Of a stretch of DNA of 64,000 nucleotides, positions 4,967 through 44,342 are shown piece after piece. The notes under the pieces are model-generated. The model made no database searches. It worked only from the letters and a program-made list of their open reading frames with translations, and had not been told where the DNA came from. Position 1 is the first letter of the stretch. Each line of letters opens with the position of its first letter. Position numbers and translations under genes: made by a program. Source of the stretch: an uncultured Cytophagales bacterium (GTDB lineage Bacteria; Bacteroidota; Bacteroidia; Cytophagales; Bernardetiaceae); assembly GCA_963761725.1 (NCBI GenBank), contig CAVXHP010000006.1, forward strand, positions 381,534 to 445,533. Reading direction: 5' to 3'.

Positions 4967-5200
4967 ATGAGTGTCATTGGTAAAAATCAAAAAATCCGTC
5001 TATTAGCTACAGAGTAGCTTTACCTTGGTAGAACAAGAATAGAAATTGATTTAAAAAGCTACAGCGTAGCGTAACTTTATTTTTAATTGCCAATTGTAAA
5101 GTTTCGCTACGCTGTAGCTCTATTAAAATAGTGTTTTTGATGTTCTACCAAGGTTACGTTGCTCTGCAACTAAAAGTCAATACCTAACAATGACACTCAT
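4967..5200. repeat. MITE-like palindromic repeat, family A, copy 1
   Basis: ~234-bp element with terminal inverted repeats (atgagtgtcattgg ... caatgacactcat) and an internal long palindrome (agctacagcgtagcgtaacttt...aaagtttcgctacgctgtagct). Near-identical copies at 18990..19233 (inverted) and 37002..37234. Confidence 0.8.
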
Positions 5201-5457: not shown

Positions 5458-7829
5458 CTATCTTCTGCTACCCGAATAGCTCATTGCTTCTCCTTTTCCA
5501 AAGGCGTAACTTACTCCAAAGGTTACAAAACGTCCACGCATTCCAAAATTATAGTTTTCGAAGGTAGGCTGATTTACAAAACTTTCTTGTATTCTTGATG
5601 CAAAAACATCTCTAATTCCTAAATTACCAACTACTTTTCCTTTAAGAAACTTCTTACGAATACCCAAATCCATAAAAGCAAAACCACTTTGTTTTCCTTG
5701 TACTGTTTCGAAGCTAGAACGGTAATTTCCAGCTATTTCAAAATCAATATCAGCAGGTAATTTTATTTTCGTGTCCAGACGAACAGACCATTGCGTTCCT
5801 GTAAAATCAAATTCTCGGCTTTCAAAAACTCCTCTTCGGTCAAAATACGTGTAATTAAAGTTACCATTAAAAGTAAGCCATTTAATAGGATTGTATTTTC
5901 CATTCGTTTCAAATCCAATAAGCGAATTTGTTCCAATATTTTGAGGTGTAGTAAAGGTAACATTATCTACAAAAGTAGAAACTCGTTCTACTACATCGGT
6001 CGTATATCTATGGTAAACACTAGAACTCATTGAAGCTTCTCCAAGTTCGTAGATACTTGTCAGTTCATAAGAGTCTGTAAATTCGGGTTGAAGGTCTGGG
6101 TTACCTGTACGAATATTAAAATTATTTCTGATATTAAAGAAAGGATTCAAATCCCACAATCTGGGTCTAAAAATACGTCTGGAGTATCCCGCTTGAAGTG
6201 CAAAATTTTCTGATGCTGTAAAGGAAGTATGTAAAGAAGGAAAAAGATTAGTAAAGTTTTGAGAATTAGATTCGTTTGTAGTTGTCAATTCTGTTTGAAG
6301 GTCTGTATTTTCTACACGCAAACCAGCTTTGATACCCCATATTTCAGTTTCAAAAGCTCCTGTTGCATACACTCCCAATACCTTCTGATTCCATTCAAAA
6401 TTATTGGTAAAATCCAAATTGCTTACATATTCTTATTTACAAAATCTTGTACTTCAAAATCATTTCCTACTCATTAATAACATACAATGCACCTGTTTCA
6501 AAAGTATATTTTTCTGTTATTGGATTGACATAATCTGCCTTAAAAGTATAATCTGTTTGGTCAAAAGTAGTAGCTGTAAGCTGATTACTATCTACATTTT
6601 CGCCTTCTAGTGTTCTATCAATAAAGACAGAAGAAAGGTCTTTTGCAAACGAACTTCCCAATGCACTTACTTGAAAAGTATGGTCTTCATTATTTTTGAA
6701 AGTTTTTGTCCAATTGAGTTCGTATTGCCATTTTGGGTTGGTAGCTTCTGTATCTTCATTACGCACCCACCTGGGAAATAGTATTATCATCTTCTAAAAA
6801 ACTAAAATTTGTTTCAGAAGGTTGGTCTTCTATTTCGTAGGCAAAGTTTCCTGAAAGTGTAAAGACATTGTACTCGTTTAGATGATAATCTGTACCTAAT
6901 CTGATATTGAAAAAGGTTTCGTTTCTAAACTCTTCTCCATCACTCAAAATAGTTTGTCCACTAATTAAATTTCGGTTGATGGCTTCTGTTTGTCTAGGTC
7001 TTGAGCGATGACCAATACCAAATTGAGTAAATAAATTAAACTTTTCAGTACGACGATTTATACTTCCTCCAAGACTATGATTAGCAGGAATACCTGTATT
7101 TGCAGAAATAGAACCATTCCAACCTTCCTTTGACTCCTTTTTAAGAACAATATTCAAAATTCCTGAGGTACCAGAAGCCTCATATTTTGCCGAAGGATTT
7201 GTAATTACTTCAATACTTTCAATCATATCTGCGGTAATAGTACCCAGTCCAGTACCACCATCTGTCAAGATAGAGGGTTTGCCATTGATAAGGATTTGTA
7301 CGCCAGCACTTCCACGCAAACTAATTTCTCCATCAATATTTACATTTACGGAAGGTACATTATTTAAAACTTCTAATGCACTAGCTCCCGTAGTGCTTAA
7401 GTCTTTTCCGACATTAAAAACACGTTTATCTAATTGAAAAGTGGTCTTGGAGACTTCTCCTTCTACTACTATTTGATCAAGCAGTTTCATATCTGGAGCA
7501 AGGGAAACAGTTCCCAAATTTACTTCATCACCTGAAATAGTAAATGCTGTTAGTGTCTTGGATTGATAACCCATAAAACTAATTTTTACATAAAAATTAG
7601 TTTGAGTAGTAGAGACAGAAAATGTTCCATCTTCGGCTGATATAACTCCTGTGATGAGTTCTTCTGTTCCTGTTTTGTAAAGTGCAACGGTAGCATAAGG
7701 AACAGGTTGAGCGGTTTCTTCTTCAACTAAATTGCCAAAGACTTCTATTTCTTGTTCTTGAGCAGTAGCAAAATTACTTCCTATAAAAAATAAGAATAAA
7801 CAAACTACGTGTAGTAAATAATTTTTCAT
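5458..7829 (-). pseudogene. TonB-dependent outer membrane receptor (CarboxypepD_reg-like N-domain plus plug plus barrel), split into three ORFs by two frameshifts
   Basis: ORF 6759..7829 carries a signal peptide, a carboxypeptidase-regulatory-like domain and plug motifs (ISLRGS...). ORFs 6467..6790 and 5458..6417 continue the beta-barrel. Frame changes at ~6760-6790 and ~6417-6467. Confidence 0.7.
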
Positions 7830-8148: not shown

Positions 8149-9032
8149 ATGGCATCAGGATTTTTTGCTCTCTTCAACGATATTGCAGTACTTATGGACG
8201 ATGTGGCTGTAATGAGTAAACTTGCCACCAAAAAAACGGCAGGACTTTTAGCAGATGATTTGGCAGTAAATGCCGAGAAAGCATCGGGATTTGTTTCGAC
8301 TAGAGAACTTCCTATTTTATGGAGAATAACAAAAGGTTCTTTGCTCAATAAATTAATTATTTTGCCTGTTTTATTTCTTTTGAGTGCTTACTTTCCCGTT
8401 GCCATTGTCCCAATTTTACTGGTAGGAGGAGTTTATTTAGCGTATGAAGGTGCTGCAAAAATATATGAAACTCTTTTTGATAAGAAAGACAAAACTAAAG
8501 CAGGTATAGATAGCAAGAAAATGAGTGCAGCCGAGATAAAAGAGTATGAAGATGAAAAAATAAAATCAGCTATTATTGTAGATTTTATTCTGTCCGTAGA
8601 AATTGTAATTATCACTTTGAGTACCGTCATGAATAGTGATATTACTACACAAATTATAGTAGTAACCATAGTGGCTTTATAGCGACTGTATTTGTTTATG
8701 GACTTGTGGCTTTGCTTGTCAGAATGGACGATTTGGGATATAATCTGATAGCCAGAAACGACGAAGAGGATAGCACTTCGGATAAAATTGGACAGGCTTT
8801 AGTAAATACATTACCTTATTTAGTTAGAGGTTTAGGGATTTTGGGAACGGTAGCCATGATTTTGGTGGCAGGAGGAATATTTGTTCATAACATTGAATAT
8901 GTACATCATCTTGTAGAAGATTTCCCTGTTCCTACTATTCTTATTGAGTTTGTTGTCGGACTGATTGTTGGATTTTTGGCTTTGCCTATTGTAAAAGGAA
9001 TTATGAAGATTGTAGGCAAAAAAAACGAATAA
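8149..9032 (+). pseudogene. DUF808 (YedI-like) inner-membrane protein, split by a frameshift at a T-run near 8680
   Basis: ORFs 8149..8682 and 8706..9032 together resemble the ~290-aa DUF808 family (MASGFFALFNDIAVLMDDVAVMSK...). The frames merge at gtggctttatagcg (likely ttt vs tttt). Confidence 0.6.
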
Positions 9033-9821
9033 ATGGCACAAGATTATGACAAGATATTCAAAGAAAATATAGAGGAAATTATTCTTCCATTAGCTAAAAA
9101 ATTACTGAATATCGACCCAGAAGGACTTGAAGAAATCAAAGATGATTTACAATATACGATTGAACGTAAACCAGATTTTTTGAAAAAGGTAATTCATAAA
9201 GATTCTACAAAAGACTATATTCTGCATATTGAATTTCAAGTAAAAGACGAACCAGAAATGATTTATCGAATGCTTGAATATTATGCACTTTTACTTAGAG
9301 ACCATAAAATAAAACTAAAACAATACGTATTCTATATTGGAGAGGGAAAATCTAAAATGCCTATTTCGATAAAGCATGAAAAACTAGATTTCTCTTTTGA
9401 GGTAATTAGTATGCAATTAATAGATTATCACAAATTCTTGGATTCCTCAAAACCAGAAGAAGTCATTTTAGCAATATTAGCTGACTTTGGCAAAGAGGAA
9501 ACTCAAACTGCCATTACAACGATTGTAAAAAAGATAATGCAAATTACAGAACCAAACCTACAACAATCAAAATACGTTAGACAATTAGAAATACTATCTA
9601 GATTACGAGAACTACAAGAACAAATTATAAAATCTTTAGAAATTATGGCACTAACTTATGATATCAGAGGCGATATTCGCTTCAAGCAAGGCAAACAAGA
9701 AACACTGGTTGAAAATATAAAAGGTTTGATTTCTATTGAACTTTCTTTTGAGAAAATCGCAAAGGCATTGAATGTTTCGATAGATTTTATTGAAGAAGTT
9801 GCTAAATCTATGAAAAAGTAA
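9033..9821 (+). CDS. Rpn/YhgA-like PD-(D/E)XK nuclease family protein (putative transposase_31 family)
   Basis: 262-aa ORF with the characteristic LHIEFQ motif followed by MIYRMLEYYALLL, typical of the Rpn recombination-promoting nuclease / YhgA family. Confidence 0.6.
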   Translation: MAQDYDKIFKENIEEIILPLAKKLLNIDPEGLEEIKDDLQYTIERKPDFLKKVIHKDSTKDYILHIEFQVKDEPEMIYRMLEYYALLLRDHKIKLKQYVFYIGEGKSKMPISIKHEKLDFSFEVISMQLIDYHKFLDSSKPEEVILAILADFGKEETQTAITTIVKKIMQITEPNLQQSKYVRQLEILSRLRELQEQIIKSLEIMALTYDIRGDIRFKQGKQETLVENIKGLISIELSFEKIAKALNVSIDFIEEVAKSMKK

Positions 9822-9955
9822 ATAGAGTTTATTATATATCAATTTTCCTCTAATTCAATTTCTAATTTCTAAATCTAAATAAATTAGGCTACTTTCGTTA
9901 CTTAATTGTTTTGGTAAAAAAATATAAGAAATTCGTTTAAAAATTTAATTGAATT

Positions 9956-11327: not shown

Positions 11328-13112
11328 TTAATCACAATCATACACATATTGTGTAGTGCTTGTCGTGGTTGTTCCTGCTGCAATGATTGTAGCAACACTT
11401 GTACGCAATAATCCTTTTGCATCAATCGTATTATTTACTTCACCTTGACTTACACCATTTCCGTCCGTAACGACTGTTTTGAGAAGTTGACAATCTTTGT
11501 AAGTATTTACTTGCCTTTGAGTAAGAACGTCACTTGCATCAAAAGTTTCTACCAGTTTTGGGAAACTTCCTGTTGTATTTAGGAAATCAGAAGAAACTGT
11601 ATAGCCTGTTAATGCACCTGCTGGCGTATAAGAATCTGAACGAGTCAAACGTTTGTTTGTGTCATATGTATTGATTACATATGATGTTAGAGTTCCTGTT
11701 GCATCAAAATTATTTACTCTTACAGTACGATCTCCATTACTATACACATACTCAGCAGAACCTGTTGGGGTAGAACCGAATTTGGTTTCATCTTTTATTC
11801 TTCTTCCTTGTGCATCATATTGAATAGAAATAACTACGTTGCCAAAACCAGTTGCAGTAGTAATTGAGGAGAGATTTTTGACTCCATTCACAACCGTATA
11901 AGCATATGTTACAGTTATAGTTCCTGCTGCTGTTACTGATGTAGTTTTGGTTACATAACAATCAGGTAAATTACAAGGATTTCCTCCTCCTCCTGTTCCA
12001 GATGCAGCTTTTACAGTTACTTTCTTTGTTATTTCATTTGTTCCTACCGAATTTGTAACTACTAATTTTACATCAAAATCACCTGCTGCCGTAAAAGTAA
12101 ATTTTGGATTTTCCGCTGTTGAGCTAAAACTAGTCCCTGCTGCAGACCATTGATAAGAAGTTGCGTTTGTGCTTGTGTTTGTAAACGTTACTTCTTGTCC
12201 TGTTTCTGGACTAGCTGGAGAAAAACTAAATGCTGCAACAGGAGCTACTTGTGCAGCTTTTACAGTTACTTTTTTAGTTATTTCATTTGTTCCTACCGAA
12301 TTTGTAACTACTAATTTTACATCAAAATCACCTGCTGCCGTAAAGGTAAATTTTGGATTTTCTACTGTTGAGTTAAAACTGGTTCCTGCTGCTGACCATT
12401 GATAAGAAGTTGCATTTGTACTTGTATTTGTGAAAGTTACTTCTTGTCCTGTCTCTGGACTGGCTGGAGAAAAACTAAATGCCGCAACAGGAGCTACTTG
12501 TGCAGCCTTTACAGTTACTTTTTTAGTTATTTCATTTGTTCCTACCGAATTTGTAACTACTAATTTTACATCAAAATCACCTGCTGCCGTAAAAGTAAAT
12601 TTTGGATTTTCTACTGTTGAGCTAAAACTGGTTCCTGCTGCTGACCATTGATAAGAAGTTGCATTTGTGCTTGTGCTTGTAAATGTTACTTCTTGTCCTG
12701 TCTCTGGACTGGCTGGAGAAAAACTAAATGCTGCAACAGGTGCAGGTGGTGGTGGTGTATCTGCTGGAGCAACGCTAATTTGTTTGGTAACTGTCGTACT
12801 TCCACCTTCTCCTGTAGCTACTAATTTTATATCAAAAGTACCTACAGTAGTAAAAGTAAATGTTGGATTTTTTTCAGTAGAGTTGAAATTTGTTCCTGAC
12901 CAAACAAAAGAAGTTGCATTAGTACTTGTGTTAGTAAACGTAACAGCTTCGTTTACTTTCGGACTAACAGGAGTAAAAGAAAAATCTGCCGTTGGTGCTT
13001 TTGGTTTTTCCTCTTCTTCTTTTTCATCAGAACAGCTTGCTGCCACAAAGGAGAGCAAAACAAAAAAAAGGAAGACATTTTTTAATGTGTTTAGAAAGTG
13101 ATATGATTTCAT
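11328..13112 (-). CDS. secreted lipoprotein with four PKD-like domains (three near-identical tandem copies) and a C-terminal YD-repeat-like region
   Basis: Lipoprotein signal (LLSFVAASCSDE). An 83-aa unit (VAAFSFSPASPETGQEVTFTNTSTNATSYQWS...VTVKAAQVAP) repeats 3x almost identically. C-terminus has YD-like motifs (IQYDAQGRRI, YDTNKRLTRSDSY). Confidence 0.75.
   Translation of the reverse strand: MKSYHFLNTLKNVFLFFVLLSFVAASCSDEKEEEEKPKAPTADFSFTPVSPKVNEAVTFTNTSTNATSFVWSGTNFNSTEKNPTFTFTTVGTFDIKLVATGEGGSTTVTKQISVAPADTPPPPAPVAAFSFSPASPETGQEVTFTSTSTNATSYQWSAAGTSFSSTVENPKFTFTAAGDFDVKLVVTNSVGTNEITKKVTVKAAQVAPVAAFSFSPASPETGQEVTFTNTSTNATSYQWSAAGTSFNSTVENPKFTFTAAGDFDVKLVVTNSVGTNEITKKVTVKAAQVAPVAAFSFSPASPETGQEVTFTNTSTNATSYQWSAAGTSFSSTAENPKFTFTAAGDFDVKLVVTNSVGTNEITKKVTVKAASGTGGGGNPCNLPDCYVTKTTSVTAAGTITVTYAYTVVNGVKNLSSITTATGFGNVVISIQYDAQGRRIKDETKFGSTPTGSAEYVYSNGDRTVRVNNFDATGTLTSYVINTYDTNKRLTRSDSYTPAGALTGYTVSSDFLNTTGSFPKLVETFDASDVLTQRQVNTYKDCQLLKTVVTDGNGVSQGEVNNTIDAKGLLRTSVATIIAAGTTTTSTTQYVYDCD
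11990..12740. repeat. 3 x 249-bp near-identical tandem DNA repeat (PKD-domain units) inside CDS 11328..13112
   Basis: Antisense ORFs 12169.., 12430.. and 12667.. translate almost identically. Recurring landmarks are offset by 249 nt. Confidence 0.8.
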
Positions 13113-13371
13113 AGTGTAGATTATTTGGGGTAAAAAATTAAATTCAGAAAGAGATAAAACTAAAATATAGTTTTCTATTTATCATATAAAGGTAACGAAG
13201 ATAAGACAACCAAAACATACGTATAAATGGGTATATTTTGAAGAAACCTGATTTGTTCTTATATATTCTATTAACAATTTTATTACCATTACATCAAAAA
13301 TCTTCAAATTCTGCGTATCTTCGATAAAATTTTAGTTCCAAACTTGTTTTTGTTCTACATTTTCTCAAAAA

Positions 13372-13854
13372 ATGAATAACTCTTCTACTAATTCTTTGTC
13401 TAATTCTACACAGTTTGAGTGTAATTCTATTTCTGATTTGTCAGAGATAGCTCAAAAAGTTATTGCTTTAGCAAATCAACTAAATAGACGTATTTGGGTA
13501 TTAGAAGGAGATTTGGGAGCAGGAAAGACTACTTTTACAAAAGCTGTTTGTGCAGCATTGGGTGTAAAAGAAACGGTCAGTAGTCCTACCTTTGCTTTGA
13601 TAAATGAGTATGAAGGAAATTATGATAAGCAAGAATCAAAGCTCATTTATCATTGTGATTTTTATAGAATTAATAACCCTAATGAAGTTTTAGAGTTAGG
13701 AATAGAAGAATACTTTGAGAAAGCAGAAGATAATGGAAATTATTGTTTTATAGAATGGGCTTCTAAAATTGAGCCTTTTCTACCAGAAGAGTATCTGCAA
13801 ATCAATATAGAAGTAGATCAAATAAGTAATTCACGTATTTTTAGATGTGTCTGA
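13372..13854 (+). CDS. tsaE: tRNA threonylcarbamoyladenosine biosynthesis protein TsaE
   Basis: 160 aa. P-loop LEGDLGAGKTTF, then SPTFALINEY and YHCDFYRI, typical of TsaE/YjeE. Confidence 0.85.
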   Translation: MNNSSTNSLSNSTQFECNSISDLSEIAQKVIALANQLNRRIWVLEGDLGAGKTTFTKAVCAALGVKETVSSPTFALINEYEGNYDKQESKLIYHCDFYRINNPNEVLELGIEEYFEKAEDNGNYCFIEWASKIEPFLPEEYLQINIEVDQISNSRIFRCV

Positions 13855-13982
13855 AAAAATAATTTTATTTGATAAAACAGTTTGAAAAAGATATTTTATT
13901 CAATTGAATATAGCAATTCGTAATTTTTAATTAGCTAAGCTGATTATTTAATAATTCGTAATCCGTAATTGTTCCATAGCTT

Positions 13983-15215
13983 ATGAGTCAAGACGATGCC
14001 ATCAAAAAATTAGTACAACAGTACGAATATTATCAACCTCAAGAAATGCTTGCCAAAGTACGGGAGCGTAATCAACAGCTCACTATTGGTATTCCAAAGG
14101 AAACCAATCAAGATGAGTTTAGGGTGGCTATGCGTCCAGAAGCCGTTCGATTATTAGTTGCAAACGGACACGAAGTAATTCTAGAAACAGGTGCAGGTGA
14201 AAAATGTAAATATACCGACCACGAGTATAGCGATGCAGGAGCGCAAATAAAGTATTCTGCAAAAGAGGTTTTTCAATCCGAAATTATCTTGAAAGTTGCA
14301 CCTCCTACTTTGAAGGAATTGGAGGAAATGCAAGGACGAAAAACACTTATTTCTACTCTGCATTTGGCTACCGTAACACCTGAATATCTACATGCCATTA
14401 ATCGCAAAAAGATTACGGCTATTGCTTATGAAATGTTACAAGATAAAGAAGGTGGCTTGCCTGTTGTGCGTTCGATGAGTGAAATTGCAGGAAGTACAGT
14501 TATGCTGATTGCAGCCGAATATTTAAGTAGTGCAAACGAAGGACAAGGAATTATTTTGGGTGGAATTACAGGTGTTGCGCCTACAAATGTAGTTGTTTTA
14601 GGCTCGGGAACAGTTGGAGAATATGCCGCCAGAACAGCTCTAGGACTTGGTGCAAGTGTAAAAGTTTTTGATAGTAGCGTTCCGATGCTTCGCAGAATAA
14701 AATACAATCTTTTGCAGCCACATCTTTTTACTTCAATTTTTGACTTGGGAACTCTAAAAGCTGCTTTGGAAGAAGCTGATGTAGTAGTGGGAGCTATTCG
14801 TCCAGAAAACGGAAGAACCCCTTCTGTCGTTACGGAAGAAATGGTGTCTCGTATGAAACCAAATTCTGTAATTATTGATGTCAGTATTGATTATGGAGGG
14901 TGTATCGAAACTTCTGAAACTACTTCGCATCATAAACCAATTTATAGAAAGTACGATGTAATTCATTATTGTGTTCCCAATATTCCTTCTCGTGTAGCAA
15001 GAACAGCAACAAATGCACTTAGCAATATTTTTGCACCTATTCTTTTGCGTGCTGGCGAACTTGGAAGCATTGAAGAAATGATTTACGCTGATATTGGTTT
15101 TGCAAAAGGAGTTTATAGTTATCAAGGAGGTTTGACAAACCAACATTTGAGCAAAAAATTCAATATGCGTTTTAAGGATATTAGTCTTATTGCAGCAGCA
15201 AAACAAGGAATGTAG
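13983..15215 (+). CDS. ald: alanine dehydrogenase (AlaDH/PNT family)
   Basis: 410 aa. LTIGIPKETNQDEFRVAMRPEAV..., Rossmann VVVLGSGTVGEYAA, conserved C-terminal catalytic region. Has a ~30-aa N-terminal extension relative to typical Ald. Confidence 0.7.
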   Translation: MSQDDAIKKLVQQYEYYQPQEMLAKVRERNQQLTIGIPKETNQDEFRVAMRPEAVRLLVANGHEVILETGAGEKCKYTDHEYSDAGAQIKYSAKEVFQSEIILKVAPPTLKELEEMQGRKTLISTLHLATVTPEYLHAINRKKITAIAYEMLQDKEGGLPVVRSMSEIAGSTVMLIAAEYLSSANEGQGIILGGITGVAPTNVVVLGSGTVGEYAARTALGLGASVKVFDSSVPMLRRIKYNLLQPHLFTSIFDLGTLKAALEEADVVVGAIRPENGRTPSVVTEEMVSRMKPNSVIIDVSIDYGGCIETSETTSHHKPIYRKYDVIHYCVPNIPSRVARTATNALSNIFAPILLRAGELGSIEEMIYADIGFAKGVYSYQGGLTNQHLSKKFNMRFKDISLIAAAKQGM

Positions 15216-15217
15216 TC

Positions 15218-15293
15218 AGTTATTAGTTATTAGTTATTAGTTATTAGTTATTAGTTATTAGTTATTAGTTATTAGTTATTAGTGCTGAACTAT
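15218..15293. repeat. (AGTTATT)n heptanucleotide microsatellite, ~10.5 units
   Basis: Perfect tandem agttatt repeats immediately after the ald stop codon. Confidence 0.9.
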
Positions 15294-15396
15294 GCTTTTT
15301 TGATTTTTAGTATAAAAATCATTATTTTTAATAAAGAAAATTCGTAATCTTTAATTGACTTCGTCGCTTTGACAGGTCGTAATTCGTAATTGACTC

Positions 15397-16101
15397 ATGG
15401 CTAATTTTATTAAATCTCTTACTGGTCTTTTGGTTGTTCTTTTACTAGGATTTGGTGTTTATTATATCATTCTTCGAAAAGATGCAAAGGAATTATTGAC
15501 ACCAATAGAAACAGTTAGAGAAACTAATTTCAAAACTGTTTTGGAGGAAGTGGAAAGTTTAGGGAAATTAGAATTGGTAAAATATAATTTTAAAGATGTT
15601 GTCGAACACACGCAAAAAAACGGTTATAGTTCTGTTTTAGATTCAAAAGTGCTGCTGATTGTAGCTGGAGAAGCAGTTGGTTGTATGGATTTGACACGCA
15701 TAAAGACGGAAGATATTACGCAAGTAGGTGATTCTGTTTTTGTTCATTTGCCTGCTCCTGAACTATGTTATTATAAAATTGACCTTCAAAAATCTAAAGT
15801 TTATGATTCAGAGTCTTTGCCTTTTATTGCAGATGATAATTTGATAGGAGAAGCGTACGCAAAAGCAGAAAAACAAATTGAAAAAGCGGCTTTAGAATCT
15901 GGAATATTACTACAAACACAAGCAATGGCAAAAACTATGTTACAACCATTTTTGGAAAAAATTACTAAAAAAACCGTCTTCCTGACCTTTGAGCCTATTT
16001 CTACAAGCGAAAAAGTAAATCCTGAAAGTAAAAATAATTCTCAGAAAAATATATTAAATAATTCTACACCTATTCAGTCCAAAAGTTTGAATAAAGAGTA
16101 G
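15397..16101 (+). CDS. hypothetical membrane-anchored protein (possibly DUF4230-like)
   Basis: 234 aa. Single N-terminal TM helix (LTGLLVVLLLGFGVYYIIL), then a soluble domain. Start codon directly preceded by a cgtaattcgtaattg motif. Confidence 0.45.
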   Translation: MANFIKSLTGLLVVLLLGFGVYYIILRKDAKELLTPIETVRETNFKTVLEEVESLGKLELVKYNFKDVVEHTQKNGYSSVLDSKVLLIVAGEAVGCMDLTRIKTEDITQVGDSVFVHLPAPELCYYKIDLQKSKVYDSESLPFIADDNLIGEAYAKAEKQIEKAALESGILLQTQAMAKTMLQPFLEKITKKTVFLTFEPISTSEKVNPESKNNSQKNILNNSTPIQSKSLNKE

Positions 16102-16135
16102 ATTATGTTGAATCTATACTAAATGTCTTGTCAAA

Positions 16136-16924
16136 CTATTCTTCTATTTCTCCTATTGAGTTTATCTCTTCCTTCTGTTCTACTTTTTCTTCTGCTGTTT
16201 GTTTTCGTTCTTCATACAAAAAAGAAATATCAATCCAATAATTTTCTGGATTTTCCAAATCTATATAAATAGGAAGCGTTTCTCTTTGCTCCAAAAAGTC
16301 TGTTGGATCAGCAGCTAAAGGTTCACTTTTAAAAAGAAGTGTACTAGAATCTTCATCTCTTTTCCACTCGCACAAAATCACAAAAGCAGGTTTGTCTTGC
16401 AACATAATTTGTGGGTCTTGCACAATGGATTGAATTACACCTTCCAAAACACTTCCATTCTCTAAAAGCCATTTTTTACGATTGGCACGCAACCAAATCA
16501 AAAGTCCCCAAATAATTCCTCCTCCTATAAAAGCAACTCCTGTGATAGATAAAAAACTCATCCAAAACCATTCATAACGCACAATATGAGTATCATCAGG
16601 ATTGATAATATCATAATAAATCTCTACTACTTCTCCTAACTCGTAGCTAGAAAAACGAGAAACCTCGTGCCTTGCTTCTACCATTATCTTCTGACTATCC
16701 AACGCATAAAAACCAATAACAGGATATGTTTTATCTTCTGGGAGAGGTTTTATCTGGACTACTCTACCCAAAGTACGCTCGTATTTTGTCTGACGAATTT
16801 GTTCTTTATTCCAACTCTGAGCAGCCAGAACCAGAAAAACCAAACCTGTCAGAATAAGCGATAGAGCGAGATAAAATGCTGTTCTTTTCATTTTTGTTTT
16901 ACTTCTGTAGCCGATAGTTTTCAA
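16136..16924 (-). CDS. hypothetical membrane protein (two TM helices flanking a soluble domain, acidic C-terminus)
   Basis: 262-aa ORF with TM segments at ~15-35 and ~120-145. No confident family assignment. Confidence 0.45.
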   Translation of the reverse strand: MKTIGYRSKTKMKRTAFYLALSLILTGLVFLVLAAQSWNKEQIRQTKYERTLGRVVQIKPLPEDKTYPVIGFYALDSQKIMVEARHEVSRFSSYELGEVVEIYYDIINPDDTHIVRYEWFWMSFLSITGVAFIGGGIIWGLLIWLRANRKKWLLENGSVLEGVIQSIVQDPQIMLQDKPAFVILCEWKRDEDSSTLLFKSEPLAADPTDFLEQRETLPIYIDLENPENYWIDISFLYEERKQTAEEKVEQKEEINSIGEIEE

Positions 16925-19919: not shown

Positions 19920-20038
19920 TTTTTGATTGTTGGTGTCGCTTCGCTAAAATATCAACAATGGTAAAGTTTGATTGACATAAAAAATAGACTTATCACAAAT
20001 TTTGATTTTATGGTAAGTCTATTTTTTGTTGTATGATT

Positions 20039-20090
20039 TTCGAAGACTAAAGTCTTCGGTACATTTTCTCACGCTAAAGTGTGAGCTACA
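20039..20090. repeat. REP-like double-hairpin repeat, family C
   Basis: cgaagactaaagtcttcggtacattttctcacgctaaagtgtgagctaca. Related copies at 20866..20898, 20903..20935 and 31231..31281 (inverted). Confidence 0.7.
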
Positions 20091-20823
20091 TTTTTTTTGG
20101 TTTGTAATATCCATCTCTTTCTTCATCTATTTGTCCTCCTTCGTAAGCACACGTTCCCATTCTAGGAGAATTTACGACAGGCATTTTTGCATAATCCTCA
20201 AAATCTTTACACTTTTTTGCGTGTTTTTTGGCGCATTTTTTACAAAAAAATCCATCATCGTACATGTGAATTCCACAAATTTCCTCTGCAGGTTCTTTCT
20301 CACAAATTCGGCAAAGAATAGGTAATGGTTCGTTACGAGAAATTAAAACAATATTATCTGATTGAAGTGGTAGAGTATATTGATCTAGAACTTTAATTTT
20401 AAAATCAGTTGTAGAACCAAAATCATATTCATAATCAAGTACTAGTCCTTTTTCAAAAACTTTTGACACTTTTGTTGTCATCGGTTTTGTGTTTGGCTCA
20501 AATCCAAAACCAAAATCATCTCTCATATCCATAATCGTAACTTTAGATTTTACTCTAAAACTACTCATGTGTCCACAACATTCCAACCAAATTGCTCTAA
20601 AAAAATCATCTAATTCATCAAAATCGGTTGTACTTTCTACTGCCAAAACCAAAAACATTTCGGCTGCCGTTATAGTAAGATGATAATATTTAGCTTTGTT
20701 TTTGTTACCTTTCTCTAGCTCTTTTTCCATTTTTTTGAGATGCGTAGAAACGTGTCTGCTCATTCCTTGTTTGCTTATTGTTTCGCTACAATACAGGCAA
20801 ACTCCTTCTGATTTTAATGCCAT
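20086..20823 (-). CDS. hypothetical Cys-rich protein (possible zinc-binding; weak resemblance to pRiA4b ORF-3-like family)
   Basis: 245-aa ORF with CxxC pairs at both ends (CLYCSE..., CRICEK...CKKCAKKHAKKC). Flanked on both sides by family C repeats. Confidence 0.4.
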   Translation of the reverse strand: MALKSEGVCLYCSETISKQGMSRHVSTHLKKMEKELEKGNKNKAKYYHLTITAAEMFLVLAVESTTDFDELDDFFRAIWLECCGHMSSFRVKSKVTIMDMRDDFGFGFEPNTKPMTTKVSKVFEKGLVLDYEYDFGSTTDFKIKVLDQYTLPLQSDNIVLISRNEPLPILCRICEKEPAEEICGIHMYDDGFFCKKCAKKHAKKCKDFEDYAKMPVVNSPRMGTCAYEGGQIDEERDGYYKPKKM

Positions 20824-20865
20824 AATTTTTTTTGTTTAGAATATTAATCGCACCTTAAAAGGTAC

Positions 20866-20935
20866 GGTACATTTTCTCACGCTAGAGCGTAAGCTACATT
20901 TAATACATTTTCTCACGCTGAAGAGTGAGCTACAC
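20866..20935. repeat. two tandem family C repeat units upstream of gene 20086..20823
   Basis: ggtacattttctcacgctagagcgtaagctaca and atacattttctcacgctgaagagtgagctaca. Confidence 0.7.
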
Positions 20936-20939
20936 TTTT

Positions 20940-22568
20940 TTACAAAATCACTTCTTTTTCAAAAGTCTTCGTATTTACTCTCAAAATTTGATGATTATTT
21001 GTATCTGAAATATATAAATAATTTCCAATTAAAAGAACATCATTCGGTTCATTGAGTCCACTAATAATTGTTTTTACTCTATTTTTTTCTAAGTCCAAAA
21101 CTTTTATTTTTCCATTGTAGGTATCAGCAATATAAACTTGATTATCAGCATACAAAACACTTACAGGGTGCTGCAAAACTGCTTTTTGTGCCGTTCCATC
21201 TTCGTCTCCAAAATCAAAAAGTCCTGAACCAACAAGCGTTCTAACTTCCTTTTTTTGTAAATCTATCTGACGAATTGCACTCGCTTCTGAGTCGGCTACA
21301 TATAAGAAATTCTCAAACTGTGTAAGTCCACTTGGTTGATTAAAAGCTACTTTCTGAAAATCATCGCCATCTGTGAGCTGCTCTCTTCCACTTCCTGCAA
21401 AACGCTCAGTTTTATAATCCTGCAAATTCATTTTTAAGATTTGATGATTTCCAGCACTTGCGATGTACATTATATTTGGGTATTTTTTATCAATCAATAA
21501 ATCCCAAGGCGAATTTGGATTTACGTTTTCTCCCCACTTTTTATCTCCAAAATAATAACTTGTTTCGCCTGTTCCTGCAATCGTTTTGACAGTTTTGTTG
21601 ATTAAATCTGCTTCTTTTATTACATTATTTTTAGTATCAGCAATATATAATTTTTCTCCATTTGGAGATAAAGCTAATCCATGAGGTTCATAGAAACTTG
21701 TTTCCTGAAAACTTCCTTCTGTATTTCCTTTTTTAGAATTTCCAATAGTTTCAAATACTTTGCCTTTCAAATTTATTTTGATAATTCTATTATTTCCACT
21801 ATCAGCGATCCAGAAAGTAGGTTCATTATTATCATTCGCAGTAGTGTTTTCTTCTCCTTTTGCTTCTATTATTTTTGAGGGAAACATAAGTTCTTTTTTC
21901 TCTACTTTTGCAAGCTGAAATTCAAACTTTTGAGTATTTAATATTGATTTATTTTGATGAATAAGAGCTAAGATTTGATTTCTTGCATCTTCATAAAAAG
22001 TTTCTCCTGCACGCTGCCAAACTACTTTTTGGTCTGGAGAAATAAGTGTAAGCGTAGGCCAAGCACGAACAGCATAACTTTGCCAAACACTCATATCTGC
22101 ATCATTGATAACAGGATGATGAATTCCAAACTTTAAGGCAGCCTGACGAATTCGTTGTGTAGATTGTTCTGCACTAAATTTTGCTGAATGGATTCCAATT
22201 ATTACAAGTTCGTTTTCAAATTCTTTTTCTAATTTTTCAAGGTCTGGAATAATATGTTGGCAATTTATACATCCAAATGTCCAAAAATCTAATAAAACTA
22301 TTTTTCCTTTAAAGTCAGCTAATTTGTACGACTTTTCAGTATTTACCCAACCAAATTTTGTATCAATTTCGGGTGCAGTAGTGGGAGGAACAACCATATA
22401 TTTTGGACTTAATTTAATTACTTTTTGTGCTGTTTTGTCTTTATCTACTTCACTTGCAGAACCTTGTTTTTCACTACAAGAAATTAAGGCAAAACAAAAT
22501 AAAAGAGAGAAAAACAGTGTTTTTTTATTGTTTAAAGTACTGAGAATAGCAAACTTATGATTTTTCAT
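20940..22568 (-). CDS. lipoprotein fusing a thioredoxin-like TlpA/redoxin domain to an NHL-repeat beta-propeller
   Basis: 542 aa. Lipobox LISCSE. Redoxin motif IVLLDFWTFGCINCQHIIP...IIGIHSAKF. Then NHL-type repeats (YEPHGLALSPNGEKLYIAD, LYVADSEASAIRQID, VYIADTYNGKIKV). Confidence 0.75.
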   Translation of the reverse strand: MKNHKFAILSTLNNKKTLFFSLLFCFALISCSEKQGSASEVDKDKTAQKVIKLSPKYMVVPPTTAPEIDTKFGWVNTEKSYKLADFKGKIVLLDFWTFGCINCQHIIPDLEKLEKEFENELVIIGIHSAKFSAEQSTQRIRQAALKFGIHHPVINDADMSVWQSYAVRAWPTLTLISPDQKVVWQRAGETFYEDARNQILALIHQNKSILNTQKFEFQLAKVEKKELMFPSKIIEAKGEENTTANDNNEPTFWIADSGNNRIIKINLKGKVFETIGNSKKGNTEGSFQETSFYEPHGLALSPNGEKLYIADTKNNVIKEADLINKTVKTIAGTGETSYYFGDKKWGENVNPNSPWDLLIDKKYPNIMYIASAGNHQILKMNLQDYKTERFAGSGREQLTDGDDFQKVAFNQPSGLTQFENFLYVADSEASAIRQIDLQKKEVRTLVGSGLFDFGDEDGTAQKAVLQHPVSVLYADNQVYIADTYNGKIKVLDLEKNRVKTIISGLNEPNDVLLIGNYLYISDTNNHQILRVNTKTFEKEVIL

Positions 22569-22727
22569 TATTTATTATTTTAGTTAATTTTTTTGGTCCT
22601 GTTTGATGCAATTACGATTGTTGCAATATATTCTTTTCTGGCTTTTCTGAATTTCGTAGCTGTTTCTTTGACTTCATTATTTATAATCTGTAAAAATATC
22701 AAAATTGAAAAAGAATACAGAATTATA

Positions 22728-22805
22728 AAAAATTCTATATCCTTTTTTTGGTTTACTTTATATTTAACAGACTGGGAAGTCTGTTTTACAAAAAAAATAA
22801 TTATC
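22728..22805. repeat. ~78-bp direct repeat, left copy, bracketing the toxin-antitoxin segment
   Basis: aaaaattctatatcctttttttggtttactttatatttaacagactgggaagtctgtt... repeats at ~85% identity at 23467..23545. Confidence 0.75.
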
Positions 22806-22872
22806 TAACAAAAGTCTCTTAAGACTTCAATCAACTTTATTATTTCAGAGGGTAAAAGCGATGCAAATTTTG

Positions 22873-23140
22873 CTATGATGATAGGTTCTCAATAGTTACT
22901 ATTTTATTACACCTAACCTCACTTATTTTTGGTAATGGTCTGGATAAATATTGAATTTCTAAAAGAAATGAAAATATATCATTTCTTAGATTACTTGTTA
23001 TTGGACAAAGCAAATAATCATTATCTAAAGAATTTGAAATCTCATGCTTACAACAATTGCAGGTCGTCTTTTACTTTGAGAAAAATTATCAGAATAGGGA
23101 TAATTTACCCAAACTAAATCGCCTTGTTGGTATTTGCTCA
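22873..23140 (-). pseudogene. MazF/PemK-family toxin, frameshifted
   Basis: Hand-translated minus strand: MSKYQQGDLVWVNYPYSDNFSQSKRRPAIVVS... (PemK N-terminal signature). After a frameshift near 23040 it continues in another frame as ...DYLLCPITSNLRNDIFSFLLE...RCNKIVTIENLS. The ATG overlaps the upstream ORF stop (ATGA). Confidence 0.6.
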
Positions 23141-23395
23141 TTTATCTTGAAGTTGAGTTTCTTTAAAAAAATCGTCCCAAATGTTATCTTCTTCTGAATC
23201 CCAACTATTTTTGAAAGATTGCAAACTCAAATCTGTAAGCTCATCTATTTTTAATTCAGTTTCTACATCATCAATTTTTTCTACTTCTATATTTAATCGT
23301 TTAGCCATTTGAATTAAAATAGCTAAATCATTTAGGTTATTGGTTTTAAAAGATACATTCATAATTTTATCTAGTTGATTTTCACTAAAAATCAT
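23138..23395 (-). CDS. putative antitoxin partner of the MazF-like toxin (85 aa, family not recognised)
   Basis: Small acidic ORF immediately upstream of the toxin remnant, with its stop overlapping the toxin start in classic TA operon geometry. Confidence 0.4.
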   Translation of the reverse strand: MIFSENQLDKIMNVSFKTNNLNDLAILIQMAKRLNIEVEKIDDVETELKIDELTDLSLQSFKNSWDSEEDNIWDDFFKETQLQDK

Positions 23396-23466
23396 TTACT
23401 AATTCAATATACAAAAATCGTTTCAAATTTTCGTGTTTATCTACAAAAAAAGGATACAGAAATATG

Positions 23467-23545
23467 AAAAATTCTATATCCTTTTTTGATTTACTTTATA
23501 TTCAACAAATTAGGAAGTCTGTTATCCAAAAAAAATTAATTCAAA
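23467..23545. repeat. ~78-bp direct repeat, right copy
   Basis: aaaaattctatatccttttttgatttactttatattcaacaaattaggaagtctgttatcc... Extends into the purL stop codon. Confidence 0.75.
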
Positions 23546-25764
23546 TACTTCGGCAAAGTGGCCTCAAATTCTTCTCTTGCTTCATCTACCGAAAGCCAAA
23601 TATTTCCATCTATCTGACATACTTTTTCAGCAACTACACTTCCAAGATTTGAAAAATCTACATTATTAGTTTTAAGTATCGTTTCAAAATTTTCTTTCTT
23701 ATCTTGAGAAACCGAAACGACAACTCTACTCTGACTTTCCCCAAACCAAAACGCATCTTTACGAACTTTATGAGAAGTAGTCTTGACAGAAAAACCTAAC
23801 TCTTTACTGGCTGCCATTGCTGATTCTGTAAGGGTTACGAAAAGTCCACCGTCCGAAACATCATGAGCAGAAACGATAAGTTTGTTTTTGATAAGCTCTA
23901 AAATCGTTTTTTGAAGTTTTGCTTCTTCTTCCAAATCAATAAACGGAGCAGGAGAGGCTTTGTATTTGTGATAGGAATACAAATATTCGGATGAAGAAAT
24001 ATCATTTCTTGATGTTCCTAACTGATAAATAATATCGCCTTCATTTTTAAAATCTAATGTCATTTTGAGTTTAATATCCTCCAAAAGACCCAACATTCCG
24101 ATGGTAGGCGTAGGAAAAACAGGACCTTCATCAGAAGATTGATTATAAAAACTCACATTTCCACCCGTTACAGGCGTTTTCAGTTTTTCACAAGCTGCTC
24201 TCATTCCCTTTATTGCTCCCACAAAATGCCAATATACTTCTGGAATATACGGATTTCCAAAATTCAAACAATTCGTAATCGCAACAGGCTCGCCACCACT
24301 ACAAACAATATTTCTTGCAGCTTCACAAACGGCTATTATCGTTCCTTTTTCTGGGTCTGAATTTACATAACGAGAATTACAATCTACCGAAATAACAATA
24401 TTTTTATTTGTTCCTTTTACGTTTACAATCGCTGCATCAGAAGGCTGATTGGTAGAAGTATTTGCCGTTCCGACCATTGAATCATACTGTTCTGCAATCC
24501 AACGACGAGAGGCAATATTTGGATGACCAATTAAAAATTTAGCAATTTCTGGTAATTTTTCGTCTTCTGGCTCTTCTATTTCGTCAATCTGAAACTGTTG
24601 ATATTCACTAAAATAAGCTGGTTCGGTATATTCTCTGTGATAAACGGGTGCACCACCACCCAAAACTAAATCATCGGCAGGAACATCAGCCACCAACTCA
24701 TCGTTTACATAAAATTCTAAACGCTTCGAATCTGTAACTACTCCAATTTGAGCACAATTCAAATCCCACTTATCAAAGATAGCTTGTAATTCGGCTTCTT
24801 TTCCTTTCTTAATAACAATAAGCATACGTTCTTGAGATTCTGAAAGCAAAATCTCAAAAGGCTGCATATTTTTTTGTCTTGTCGGAACTTTATCCAAATA
24901 GATTTTCATTCCGTGTTCTCCTTTTGCACTCATTTCGGAAGTTGAACACGTAATTCCTGCTGCTCCCATGTCTTGGATTCCTATCAAATGACCTGTTGCG
25001 ATAGCTTCCAAGGTAGCTTCTAAAAGCAGTTTTTCTTGGAAAGGGTCGCCTACTTGTACGGCAGGAAGGTCTTTTATCGAATCATCTGAAATATCTTTTG
25101 AGGCAAATGAAGCACCATGAATTCCATCTTTTCCTGTTGCAGAACCTACAATATAAACTGGATTCCCTACGCCATACGAAATAGCAGAGGCAATTTTGTC
25201 TGTTTCTACAATTCCTGCTGAAAAAGCATTTACTAACGGATTTACATTATAGGATTCATCAAAATAAACTTCTCCTCCTACTGTCGGGATTCCAAAGGCA
25301 TTTCCATAATCTCCAATTCCTCTTACTACCCCTTTCACTAACCATTGCGTTTTTGGAGAAGTGATATTACCAAAACGGAGAGAATTAAGTTGTGCAATCG
25401 GTCTTGCTCCCATCGTGAAAATATCTCTATTTATTCCTCCTACACCTGTTGCTGCACCTTGGTAGGGTTCTAATGCTGACGGATGGTTATGCGATTCAAT
25501 TTTGAAACTACATGCCAAACCATCTCCAATATCCACCAAACCAGCGTTTTCTTCTCCTGCTTCTACAAGCATTCGTTCTGATTTTTTGGGAAGTGTTTTG
25601 AGCCAAACAATAGAATTTTTATAAGAACAGTGTTCTGACCACATAACAGAAAAAATACTGAGTTCAGTAAAATTAGGCTTCCTACCTAGAATTTCTTCTA
25701 TTTTGATAAACTCTTCTGCCGTAAGTCCTAGTTTTTGTGCTGTTTCGGTTGTCGTGATTTCCAT
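23536..25764 (-). CDS. purL: phosphoribosylformylglycinamidine synthase subunit PurL (FGAM synthase II)
   Basis: 742 aa. N-terminus [40 protein letters not shown] and AIR-synthase-related domains throughout. Confidence 0.95.
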
Positions 25765-30072: not shown

Positions 30073-30245
30073 AATTAATTTAGTTGTGTAGTACAGACTT
30101 TCTAGTCTGTGTAAAAAACAATAATTTCATTCTAATTTGTAAAAATAAAACAAAAATAAGTGTTTCTCTATTTTAGTGTGTAAATTTGTCAAATTAAAAG
30201 TACACAAATTATTTTTGCCAATCTATTTTCAATTTATTTAGAAAC

Positions 30246-32427: not shown

Positions 32428-32708
32428 GATATATAAAAGTTTCAGTTGAAAAAATGGAATTCCTAATTATAAAAAAATCGAAAAATTAAAAGTTACAGCA
32501 AAAAAATCTTCCTTTGTAATTAAATGTTAAAAGTAACTATTTTTAAAGATTTCACAAAGACTATTTTTCAAACACTCATTTCAAAAAAAAGTTTAATCAA
32601 TTCTAAATTTTATCTTTGTTGAATGAATACTATTCAAAAAGCTGTATTTGCAAAACCAGAATCAAACAAAATCAATTGTTGATAAAATCGCTAAACCACA
32701 AGTCAAAA

Positions 32709-34035
32709 ATGAATTCATTTATCTATATTATTCTTCTACCTATTTTAGTTTTCTCTTGTACAAATAATAAAGTTGCTATTTCTAAAGAAGAAAATAAAAC
32801 AGAAACAATACATCAAGATTCTAGCAAAATAAGCCAGAAAGGAATTGTAATAGCTACTAACAAACTAATTATAGGAGCTGCACAAACTGAAAAGTATTTT
32901 GATTTAATCAAAAATAAGCGTGTCGGACTAGTTGTAAATCATACTTCAGTAGTTTATACTGAAAATGATTCACTTCATTTAGTAGATTTTTTACTCAAAA
33001 ATAAGAATGAGAACAAAATAAATATACAAACAATTTTTGCACCCGAACACGGTTTTCGGGGAACAGCAAGTGCAGGAGAGACTATCAAAAATGGAAAAGA
33101 TACAAAAACAGGAATTGATATAATTTCTCTTTATGGTAAAAACAAAAAACCAACTAAAGAACAGCTAAATAATATCGATGTTTTGATATTTGATATTCAA
33201 GACGTTGGTACCCGTTTTTATACTTACATTAGTACAATGCACTATTGTATGGAAGCTGCTGCCGAAAATAACAAACAAATAATTATCTTAGATAGACCAA
33301 ACCCAAATGGTTTTTATGTCGATGGTTGTATCAGAGAGGAAAAATACGAAGTCTTTTGTAGGAATGCACCCTATTCCGATTGTTCACGGACTTACAGTAG
33401 GCGAGCTTGCCAAAATGATTGAAGAAGAAAAATGGCTCAAAAATGAAAAAAAAGAAGTCGTACAATTAAAAGAAAATTTAATACTTATTCCTTGTCAAAA
33501 CTATTCTCACAAAGATAAATATAATTTACCTACTGCACCTTCTCCAAACCTACCTACTCAAAATTCAATTTTAATTTATCCTTCTCTATGCCTTTTTGAG
33601 GGAACAACAATGAGTGTCGGACGTGGAACAACTTTTCCTTTTGAAGTAGTAGGACATCCAAAATTCCCCAAAGAAAATGCATCTATTTCATTTACTCCGA
33701 TACCAAACGAAGGAGCAAAATACCCTCCTCTTGAAAATAAATTATGTTATGGAATCGATTACCAAACCCAAGAATTAGAAAGTAGTTTTTCATTAAAGCC
33801 TATTTTAAACTTTTATCAAATTATGAAAGATAAAGACTTAGAGGGAAAAGATAAAAGAGATAAAAAAGATAATTTCTTTAATTCCTACTTCAACACACTT
33901 GCAGGAAATGATAAACTACAAGCACAAATAAAAGAAGGTCTATCGGAGCAGGAAATCAAAGCAACATGGAAAGAAGATTTACAGACCTATAAAATAATGA
34001 GAAAAAAATATCTATTATATGAAGATTTTGAGTAG
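32709..34035 (+). pseudogene. DUF1343 / NamZ-like exo-beta-N-acetylmuramidase lipoprotein, split by a frameshift near 33335
   Basis: ORFs 32616..33422 (lipoprotein signal MNSFIYIILLPILVFSC from 32709) and 33307..34035 contain DUF1343 motifs (VGLVVNHTSV, DIQDVGTRFYTY, SFVGMHPIPIVHGLTVGELA). The frames join at gaggaaaaatacgaag. Confidence 0.65.
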
Positions 34036-37945: not shown

Positions 37946-39366
37946 AATGAAATTCTTTTATTCCCTTTCACTATTTCTATTCATTTCTTCTTTATCTTTG
38001 CTCAAAAAACTCAATTACCTATCTCTGAATATGACCCTAAAATTTATGAAATTATAAAAAATACTTCTACTCAAAATGTAGAAAACGATGTCAAAAAATT
38101 AGCAGACTTCGGAACTCGTCATACGCTTTCTGATACTGTTTCAGAAACTCGTGGAATTGGTGCAGCCAGAAGATGGATAAAAGCAGAGTTTGATAAAATT
38201 TCGGCAGCTTGTAATGGTTGTTTGGAAGTATCATATCAAAGAAATTTACTCAAAAAAGGAGCAAACGAACGCATTGTAAATGATGTTTGGATTGTCAATG
38301 TAATTGCAGTTTTGAGAGGAACAGAGAATCCAACTAGTTATGCTATAATGGCTGGTGATATTGATTCTCGTGCTTCTGATGTTACTAATTTTACAATTGA
38401 TGCTCCAGGTGCAAATGATAATGCTACAGGAATTGCTGGAATTTTGGAAGCTGCACGAGTTTTGTCAAAATATCATTTAAAGATGGAAGTAAGTTTAAAA
38501 ATAGTGTTGTATTTGCAGCACTTTCTGGAGAAGAACAAGGACTTTTCGGAGGACAGTTTATGGCAAAACAAGCCAAAAAAGACGGTTGGGATATTATTGG
38601 AGTAATTAATAATGATATGATTGGAAATATTGAAGGTGTTGATGGAGTAATTGATAATCGCAGTTTTCGTATTTTTTCAGAACCAACACCTGTTACAGAA
38701 ACTGAACAGGAGAGAAATAGAAGACGTTATTATGGAGGAGAAATAGATGGTGTTTCTCGTCAACTTGCTCGCTACATCCATTCTACTACTCAAAAATACA
38801 TGCCTGAAATGAACCCTACTATGATTTATCGCTTAGATAGATTTGGCAGAGGTGGACATCACAAACCTTTTAATGATGAAGGTTTTGCAGGAGTTCGTAT
38901 CATGGAAAGCCACGAAAATTATAACCGTCAGCATCAAGATATTAGAGTAGAAAACGGAATAAAATATGGCGATGTAGTAGAGGGAGTAAATTTTGACTAT
39001 TTGGCAAAACTTACTTCTGTCAATGCAATTGTACTTGCCAATTTGGGTTGGTCACCTTTAGCACCTCAAAATGTAAAAATTGGTGGAGCAGTTCAGCCTT
39101 CAACTACACTTTCTTGGGACAAGCCAAAACAAGACAATTCTACAATAATTGGTTACAAAGTTTATTGGAGAGAAACCACAGCTCCACAATGGAAAAATGC
39201 TCGTTTTGTGCCAAAAGAATTGTATCAAGATAATGGAAATACAAAAGAACAGATTACCTTTGTACTAGAAAATATCGTCATCGATAATTATCTTTTCGGA
39301 GTAGCTACGGTTGATGAAAATGGATATGAAAGTATAGTAAGTTTTCCAAAAGAAGTAATTCGATAA
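37946..39366 (+). pseudogene. M28-family aminopeptidase with C-terminal fibronectin-III-like domain, split by two frameshifts
   Basis: Signal peptide MKFFYSLSLFLFISS in frame A. Frame B 38001..38605 has DIDSRASDVTNFTIDAPGANDNATGIAGILEAARV. Frame C 38560..39366 has GQFMAKQAKKDGWDIIGVINNDMIGN... Frameshifts at ctcaaaaaactc (~38003) and catttaaagatgg (~38545). Confidence 0.65.
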
Positions 39367-43908: not shown

Positions 43909-43960
43909 AATTGAAATATATATAAGAGTGATAAATTATTTACTGATTTTTGTGTCCTTT

Positions 43961-44286: not shown

Positions 44287-44342
44287 TTATCTGGTATTTT
44301 GAAGTAATTCGTAAAATATCAAATCTTTAAAGTTATTATTTT

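Follow-up and report, generated by a model that had tools for sequence, protein, structure and literature searches.

The purL locus described here is best explained, with a probability of roughly 0.7, as a strain-variable slot at the putative purL terminator in which a self-contained type II toxin-antitoxin cassette of about 0.65 kb has been inserted, the terminator being duplicated at insertion. Comparison with related genomes shows a presence/absence polymorphism in which the upstream terminator module is duplicated around the insert. The toxin-antitoxin cassette itself is ordinary; the unusual part is the recurrence of the terminator-duplicating bracket around diverse small inserts. The locus lies in a stretch of 64,000 nucleotides, hereafter the window, which has a G+C content of 32% and comes from a Bernardetia-like member of the Cytophagales. 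The PurL protein of the window is 93-99% identical in amino acid sequence to Bernardetia PurL proteins, and its orthologue in L001, a metagenome contig that shares 97.8% identity with the window along 12 kb, carries the Pfam domains FGAR-AT_linker, AIRS and AIRS_C.

All features of the locus are found on the minus strand. In this direction, purL is followed by a 95-nt module and, after an upstream region of some 85 nt, by a small ORF and a PemK-like ORF; the module then recurs, and a spacer of about 140 nt separates it from a gene for a 542-aa protein. The purL gene appears in the ORF list at 23536..25764 and encodes subunit II of FGAM synthase (742 aa), with its stop codon at 23536-23538. The right, purL-proximal copy of the module (23447..23541) takes in this stop codon and consists of the purL TAA, a T-run, a degenerate palindrome, a spacer and a putative terminator hairpin with its U-tract, while the left, distal copy (22708..22802) starts at the ancestral stop codon of the toxin, its palindrome being perfect and the stem of its hairpin 17 bp long. 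Between the copies there are no genes other than the toxin-antitoxin pair, namely the antitoxin ORF (23138..23395, 85 aa as drawn) and the pseudogene of a PemK/MazF-family toxin (22801..23141, ancestral stop TAA at 22801-22803), and the ATG of the toxin overlaps the TGA of the antitoxin by 4 nt (ATGA). They are preceded by the cassette 5' region (23363..23446), a putative promoter/operator that contains the conserved block GATTTTTGTATATTG at 23405-23419. On the far side, the 542-aa gene (20940..22568), which encodes a thioredoxin/AhpC-TSA protein with NHL repeats according to Pfam searches of its L001 and L165 orthologues, forms the right boundary of the purL slot in the lineage of the window.

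Local alignment of the two repeats (22708-22802 and 23447-23541) gave two 1-nt gaps and a spacing of 739 nt, and in a blastn-short search with the left copy as query the right copy was the only match in the 64-kb window (87.9% identity over 91 nt, E 1.3e-19), a third copy being absent from it. The initial annotation had described direct repeats of about 78 bp; these are real and 88% identical, but they extend about 20 nt further on the low-coordinate side. The remainder of its description of the bracket agrees with the present analysis, including the two small minus-strand genes with ATGA overlap between the repeats, the extension of the right repeat into the purL stop codon and the ACAGACT...AGTCTGT palindrome carried by both repeats. 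Each copy opens at a TAA stop codon, that of purL in the right copy and the ancestral one of the toxin in the left copy, and the repeats are two copies of the purL 3'UTR, a putative terminator module formed by a T-run, a small palindrome, a spacer and a hairpin. The two copies are 84-88% identical to each other and 79-82% identical to their orthologues in other species; since they are barely closer to each other than to the latter, either the duplication in the window is old or one of the copies is foreign.

After repair of its reading frame, the toxin of the window matched PF02452 (PemK_toxin) with an E-value of 2.2e-14 and 54 bits (cut-off 23.1); the match to the NCBIfam MazF model lay below the cut-off (28 bits vs 120). 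The allele of L001 is intact (114 aa) and is accompanied by an identical antitoxin. At the RRPA(I)VVS and CPITS motifs it can be aligned with MazF proteins of known structure. Compared with this allele, the toxin of the window shows four single-base deletions, at about 23046, at about 22891 and two near 22823; the N-terminal sequence and the PemK/MazF-like character first noted for this gene were confirmed, but not the single frameshift noted with them. These deletions, which rest on one assembly, are the only coding indels in the 12-kb alignment of the window with L001, and the toxin differs from that of L001 in 10 of 345 columns vs 0 of 306 for promoter plus antitoxin (Fisher p 0.002). As read from this assembly, the module would therefore now be an orphan antitoxin followed by a toxin pseudogene, and the toxin is apparently dead in this genome. 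A less probable reading, although one with arguments in its favor, is that the frameshifts are assembly errors and that the cassette is a fully functional toxin-antitoxin system here. At least five other genes of the window are broken up into neighboring ORFs (a TonB-dependent receptor, DUF808, NamZ, an M28 peptidase and UvrC; 5458-7829, 8149-9032, 32616-34035, 38222-39366 and 50229-52074), several of the breaks coincide with A5-A6 runs, and in L005, a related genome bin from long reads, purL is heavily frameshifted. The split genes may be real pseudogenes or residual assembly indel errors and, because of them, some frameshifts in this assembly may be errors. Nevertheless, the four deletions of the toxin fall within 345 nt and none is in a long homopolymer (two are at AA doublets and two at single bases), whereas no deletion occurs in the other coding sequence of the 12-kb comparison or in the adjacent 400 nt of the cassette. 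Moreover, independent knock-outs of the substitution type recur in relatives, as W11stop in L083 and as a change of the start codon from ATG to ACG in the short-read assemblies L161-163, beside which L164 is intact. The antitoxin is intact in all these knock-outs, and toxin loss with retention of the antitoxin appears to recur in three lineages.

The small gene upstream of the toxin was named an antitoxin on the basis of its context adjacent to PemK, since in every locus retrieved, at four genomic locations, it stands directly upstream of a PemK gene or of its inactivated remnant. The 85-aa ORF of the initial annotation exists, but its product probably comprises 74 aa (23138..23362, from Met12 at 23362), because 14 of the 15 family members obtained by a word-indexed search, all except the ORF of the window, have 71-78 aa and their alignment with it begins at Met12. 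In the C-terminal half, which is acidic, W54, D59, W62, F65 and F66 are invariant. Comparison of the antitoxin with Pfam, NCBIfam, PADLOC and PDB revealed no significant match, so that the HMM search suggested for both proteins placed the toxin in PF02452 and found no family model for its neighbor. Among distant relatives, sub-threshold matches to DUF2683 were obtained for 3 of the 10 scanned, and a profile search of 1.84 billion cluster representatives retrieved 23 at E<=1e-3. An AlphaFold2 model built on the antitoxin alignment was poor (pLDDT 55.6, pTM 0.29) and for this reason was not used for fold search. Judged from sequence and gene context, the antitoxin is a member of a rare, unmodelled family partnering MazF-type toxins. 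The block GATTTTTGTATATTG is kept upstream of all homologous cassettes at the four genomic locations, and the region that contains it is the putative promoter/operator of the cassette. Away from purL, homologous cassettes of the same subfamily occur between SSF and GT2 genes, among TPR/CHAT genes and near a HisKA gene, and no flanking repeats were found around them at those loci.

With respect to the anatomy of the module, two mismatches interrupt the palindrome ACAGACTTCCYAGTCTGT (18 nt, ACAGACT-N4-AGTCTGT) in the right copy (at 23505-23522), and in the left one (at 22767-22784) it is perfect. The arms of the right-copy hairpin lie at 23446-23461 and 23472-23487 and are followed by a U-tract; the left-copy hairpin (about 22708-22748) has a 17-bp stem with a fold energy of -27.6 kcal/mol and a z of -5.7. 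Across copies, the stem of this putative terminator comprises 16-17 bp flanked by A- and U-tracts, with z between -2.5 and -5.9. The module folds as two separate hairpins, both of which are kept in eight copies from six genomes; among these copies, every one-sided change in the hairpins is a G.U wobble on the sense strand, a pattern that fits an RNA-level role in the purL transcript, and no double compensatory changes were found. A consensus scan called no terminator, the hairpin included; the probable reason is that the loop is beyond the limit of the scanner or that the U-tract is absorbed into the stem. Promoter-like matches were at chance level. Every Rfam match in the interval 22000-24000 of the window had E>2, far below the gathering score. 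Orthologous copies of the module follow purL singly in L005, L119 and L166, and another is present after purL in L167. In the Bernardetia sequence examined (the 64-kb window and about 20 related loci), the purL hairpin is confined to the purL slot. Scanning of metagenome contigs with the hairpin pattern retrieved 68 loci, nearly all of them unrelated gut-type sequences, with L119 as the only Bernardetia purL locus; a match in L110 was rejected as a chance hairpin. The palindrome by itself is dispersed in intergenic positions, with seven matches in the window vs 0.22 expected (22767, 23505, 30093, 39911, 39974, 50155 and 50195), the one at 30093 being missing from the orthologous region of L119, and it looks like a REP-like element. 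A role as a regulator binding site was considered and rejected, as the neighboring genes (GNAT, GT2, Omp85 and UvrC-like) have no common theme.

Empty sites with a single copy of the repeat, whose existence had been anticipated in the initial annotation, occur in several relatives. In L165, the nearest relative found (purL 98.5% identical at the nucleotide level, downstream flanks 99.7-99.9% identical), one hairpin and no cassette lie between purL and the same 542-aa gene, and the downstream flank of the left module of the window is continuous with this single hairpin. Because the UTR between stop codon and hairpin in L165 differs from that of the window, it represents an alternative allele and not a simple excision product. 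In L005, L119/L169-174 and L166, one full module follows purL and is succeeded by other genes, and two repeats with nothing between them were not found in the relatives examined. These empty sites, together with the match of the toxin to the PemK family, support the original proposal of a toxin-antitoxin cassette inserted behind purL with duplication of the flank. A further insert in L165, palindromic and MITE-like (GTCTGTACCGAAGGTCTGAC ... GTCAGACCTTCGGTACAGAC), measures about 226 nt and lies upstream of the 542-aa gene at about 4990-5200, equivalent to a position near 22590 in the window.

The same cassette, with the same 5' junction, is present at purL in a more distant lineage (L159/L160), between 42-nt hairpin repeats that are 95% identical. 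Between L159/L160 and L001, the dS of the toxin (0.60) matches that of purL (0.57), and therefore the association of the cassette with purL could be as old as the lineages. Divergence between the window and L001 is mosaic, with 112 differing sites in purL (95% identical), 9 in the 542-aa gene and an identity of 99+% downstream. This distribution points to frequent homologous exchange, a process that would disseminate or eliminate such alleles, and the sequence comparison suggests recent recombination around the purL locus. Elsewhere in L001, a restriction-modification pair formed by an N6_N4_Mtase with HEAT repeats and a CfrBI-type endonuclease is inserted at 12120-14573 and is absent from the corresponding part of the window (about 16101-16208).

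The module is not specific to the toxin-antitoxin cassette, since other cargo in the purL slot, as well as a neighboring 245-aa gene, is likewise bracketed. Over at least eight Bernardetia lineages the slot is either empty or filled with one of four cargoes, which comprise the toxin-antitoxin pair, a 187/188-aa gene alone or with a GNAT gene, and a pair of 260-aa and 355-aa genes; the inserts measure 0.7-2 kb and the arrays have 1-3 units. The finished genome of B. litoralis DSM 6794 (L167) has a 188-aa gene after purL between repeats of about 110 nt, which take in a degenerate copy of the last 20 nt or so of purL. Also in this slot of L167, at 9062-9848 and in opposite orientation, lies a PemK-family gene of 117 aa that is distinct from the toxin of the cassette and is preceded by a gene of 111 aa; a degenerate fragment of GNAT comes next. 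Bernardetia sp. OM2101 (L002) presents three hairpins, one after purL, one after a 187-aa gene and GNAT and one after two further genes, and its third repeat takes in 62 nt of the GNAT 3' end with 91% identity. In these two genomes the bracketing duplications span 44-110 nt and always end at the hairpin. In all slot cases, the insert starts right after the U-tract and the start of the distal repeat varies (42-110 nt); in five of six, the last stop codon of the cargo coincides with the start of the distal repeat or falls among its first bases. The second bracketed unit of the window (20022..20941, minus strand) contains a PRiA4_ORF3-like gene of 245 aa (20086..20823) and has the same bracketing architecture as the toxin-antitoxin cassette, with a different hairpin module, TGTAGCTCAC-N6-GCGTGAGAAAATGTA. 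Two copies of this module (20868-20898 and 20904-20934) follow the stop codon of the 542-aa gene, the third (20060-20090) overlaps the TAG stop of the 245-aa gene itself, and the module was found at that spot only. Further repeats in the window include three tandem 249-nt coding repeats inside a 594-aa ORF (12003-12749), an (AGTTATT)n microsatellite (15204-15301), three tandem intergenic units of about 130 nt with hairpins beside recA (43958-44312) and, ahead of two small genes on the minus strand, a direct repeat of 64 nt whose copies are 88% identical (48798-48861 and 49946-50009).

We propose that the cassette, in which a promoter region of its own precedes the genes for an acidic antitoxin of 74 aa and an endoribonuclease toxin of the MazF/PemK type, would occupy a slot of Bernardetia genomes whose start coincides exactly with the 3' edge of the purL terminator. 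Insertion may have taken place at the end of the terminator U-tract with duplication of 40-110 nt of upstream sequence, so that one copy of the module would end the purL transcript and the other the cassette transcript. By analogy with known systems, RNA cleavage by an intact toxin would be held in check by binding of the labile antitoxin, whose acidic tail rich in Trp and Phe would fill the RNA groove of the toxin in the manner of MazE on MazF. As to the event itself, we tentatively favor recombination of a small DNA, carrying the cassette plus a terminator, with the resident terminator, for example as a circle through one crossover of the Campbell type, catalyzed by RecA or another recombinase. 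A second possibility, to which we give slightly less weight, is that replication stalled at the hairpin, switched template and copied the terminator twice. Once formed, the allele would spread or be lost among strains via homologous recombination in the flanks. Neither a recombinase nor a transposase or integrase was found near any occupied site, and no recombinase domain was detected in the roughly 30 window ORFs screened or in the called genes of L001, L159, L166 and L167. The inserts lack the marks of a transposon or insertion sequence, with neither terminal inverted repeats specific to their ends nor a transposase, and the duplication is variable, with 42-110 nt, instead of short and of fixed length. 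An origin by reverse transcription of mRNA was rejected, as about 45 nt of the insert precede the conserved -7-like box, and so was an IS200/IS605-type element with hairpin ends, as the empty sites keep one hairpin. Extended to the genus, the proposal would be that Bernardetia captures genes at the 3' edge of terminators independently of an integrase, copying the terminator and a variable upstream stretch to the far side and building short integron-like arrays behind housekeeping genes, with the purL cassette and the 245-aa gene as two of its products in the window; this generalization is speculative, and we give it a low probability.

Among the other explanations of the bracket, the one that survives best, although we consider it unlikely, is that the repeats are the attL/attR scars of a site-specific integrative element at the purL 3' end, which decayed to a toxin-antitoxin addiction module, and that the arrays of other genomes are tandem accretions at this one attachment site. 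Integration by tyrosine recombinases typically produces repeats of 40-110 nt in which the 3' end of the target gene is contained; the repeat of the window starts at the purL stop codon, and, as described, that of L167 includes about 20 nt of purL and the third one of L002 includes 62 nt of GNAT. Tandem arrays with a repeat in common, and the presence of PRiA4_ORF3-like and Bro-N-like genes nearby, also agree with such an origin. However, no integrase or other element gene was found within about 6 kb in any of the five occupied genomes, the inserts are of only 0.7-2 kb, with the last cargo stop at the repeat start in five of six cases, and the repeat length changes from insert to insert, while the window and L159 have the same minimal cassette and the same 5' junction.

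It is still less probable that the slot holds an array of integron-like cassettes, or clustered attC-type sites, without an integrase of its own, in which the hairpin module would be the recombination site and the integrase would be encoded elsewhere. Cassettes of 0.7-2 kb formed by one or more genes and a structured repeat of 40-110 nt, with stop codons at the repeat start and an insert boundary fixed at the repeat 3' end, are in line with this arrangement, and chromosomal integrons typically contain toxin-antitoxin cassettes that bring their own promoter (PMC11023631). The module, however, shows no RYYYAAC...GTTRRRY core pair (RYYYAAC is absent, and GTTRRRY occurs by chance at the palindrome end only) and forms two separate hairpins, not one bulged attC hairpin. 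No integrase was present among the window ORFs screened, some of the repeats take in coding sequence of the preceding gene, unlike attC sites, and the arrays have at most three units. Finally, it is very improbable that nothing was duplicated and that two independent members of a common terminator/REP-like family flank the cassette by coincidence, as the dispersal of the 18-nt palindrome and the generic hairpins that fit the stem pattern in unrelated metagenomes might suggest, because the full module with its terminator hairpin was not found at any other position, either in the window or across the other Bernardetia loci examined, the similarity extends over the non-palindromic spacer, and in other genomes the repeat reaches into purL or GNAT coding ends.

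The movement of chromosomal toxin-antitoxin cassettes, and of other very small accessory genes, in the absence of any mobility gene has long been a loose end. The purL slot, which includes that of the culturable type strain B. litoralis DSM 6794, offers a concrete system in which terminator hairpins can be studied as candidate landing pads for gene capture, and a rare, unmodelled antitoxin family for MazF-type toxins is now defined. A literature search found no published account of a terminator-duplicating cassette insertion, and the locus can be compared with several known systems.

With MazEF and PemIK (Kis-Kid), the cassette shares a toxin of the PF02452 family, whose RRPA..VS and CPIT motifs align with MazF structures, a bicistronic organization with the antitoxin first and a 4-nt ATGA overlap, and an acidic C-terminus of the antitoxin that contains Trp and Phe. 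It differs from them in that the antitoxin has no detectable relation to MazE/PemI (AbrB-type) or to any other modelled antitoxin, and in that the toxin of the window is apparently a pseudogene. Like integron cassettes, the inserts are small, end in a structured repeat of 40-110 nt and have their stop codon at the repeat and, like toxin-antitoxin cassettes of sedentary chromosomal integrons, the one described here would have its own promoter and sits on a platform that bears different cargo between strains (PMC11023631). Unlike them, the purL slot has no integron integrase, attI or attC core sites that could be found, and its repeats copy the terminator of the preceding gene, and sometimes its coding end, in arrays of 1-3 units.

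The direct repeats that reproduce the 3' end of the target gene, the tandem accretion and the presence/absence polymorphism are also features of integrative and cis-mobilisable elements, whereas the purL-slot inserts are ten to a hundred times smaller, have no integrase in or near any of them and are bounded by repeats of varying length; no mobility genes lie between the repeats, which enclose only the toxin-antitoxin genes in the window and one or two unrelated small genes in the other inserts. REP/BIME palindromes resemble ACAGACTTCCYAGTCTGT in being short, dispersed and intergenic, but only the small palindrome is dispersed, the terminator hairpin and the whole module being confined to the purL locus. 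In the minimal mobile elements of Neisseria, alternative small cargo lies between the same conserved genes and is swapped by homologous recombination in the flanks. Although these elements, unlike the purL slot, are not defined by duplication of an upstream terminator, an exchange of cargo through the flanks fits the mosaic divergence observed at the purL locus.
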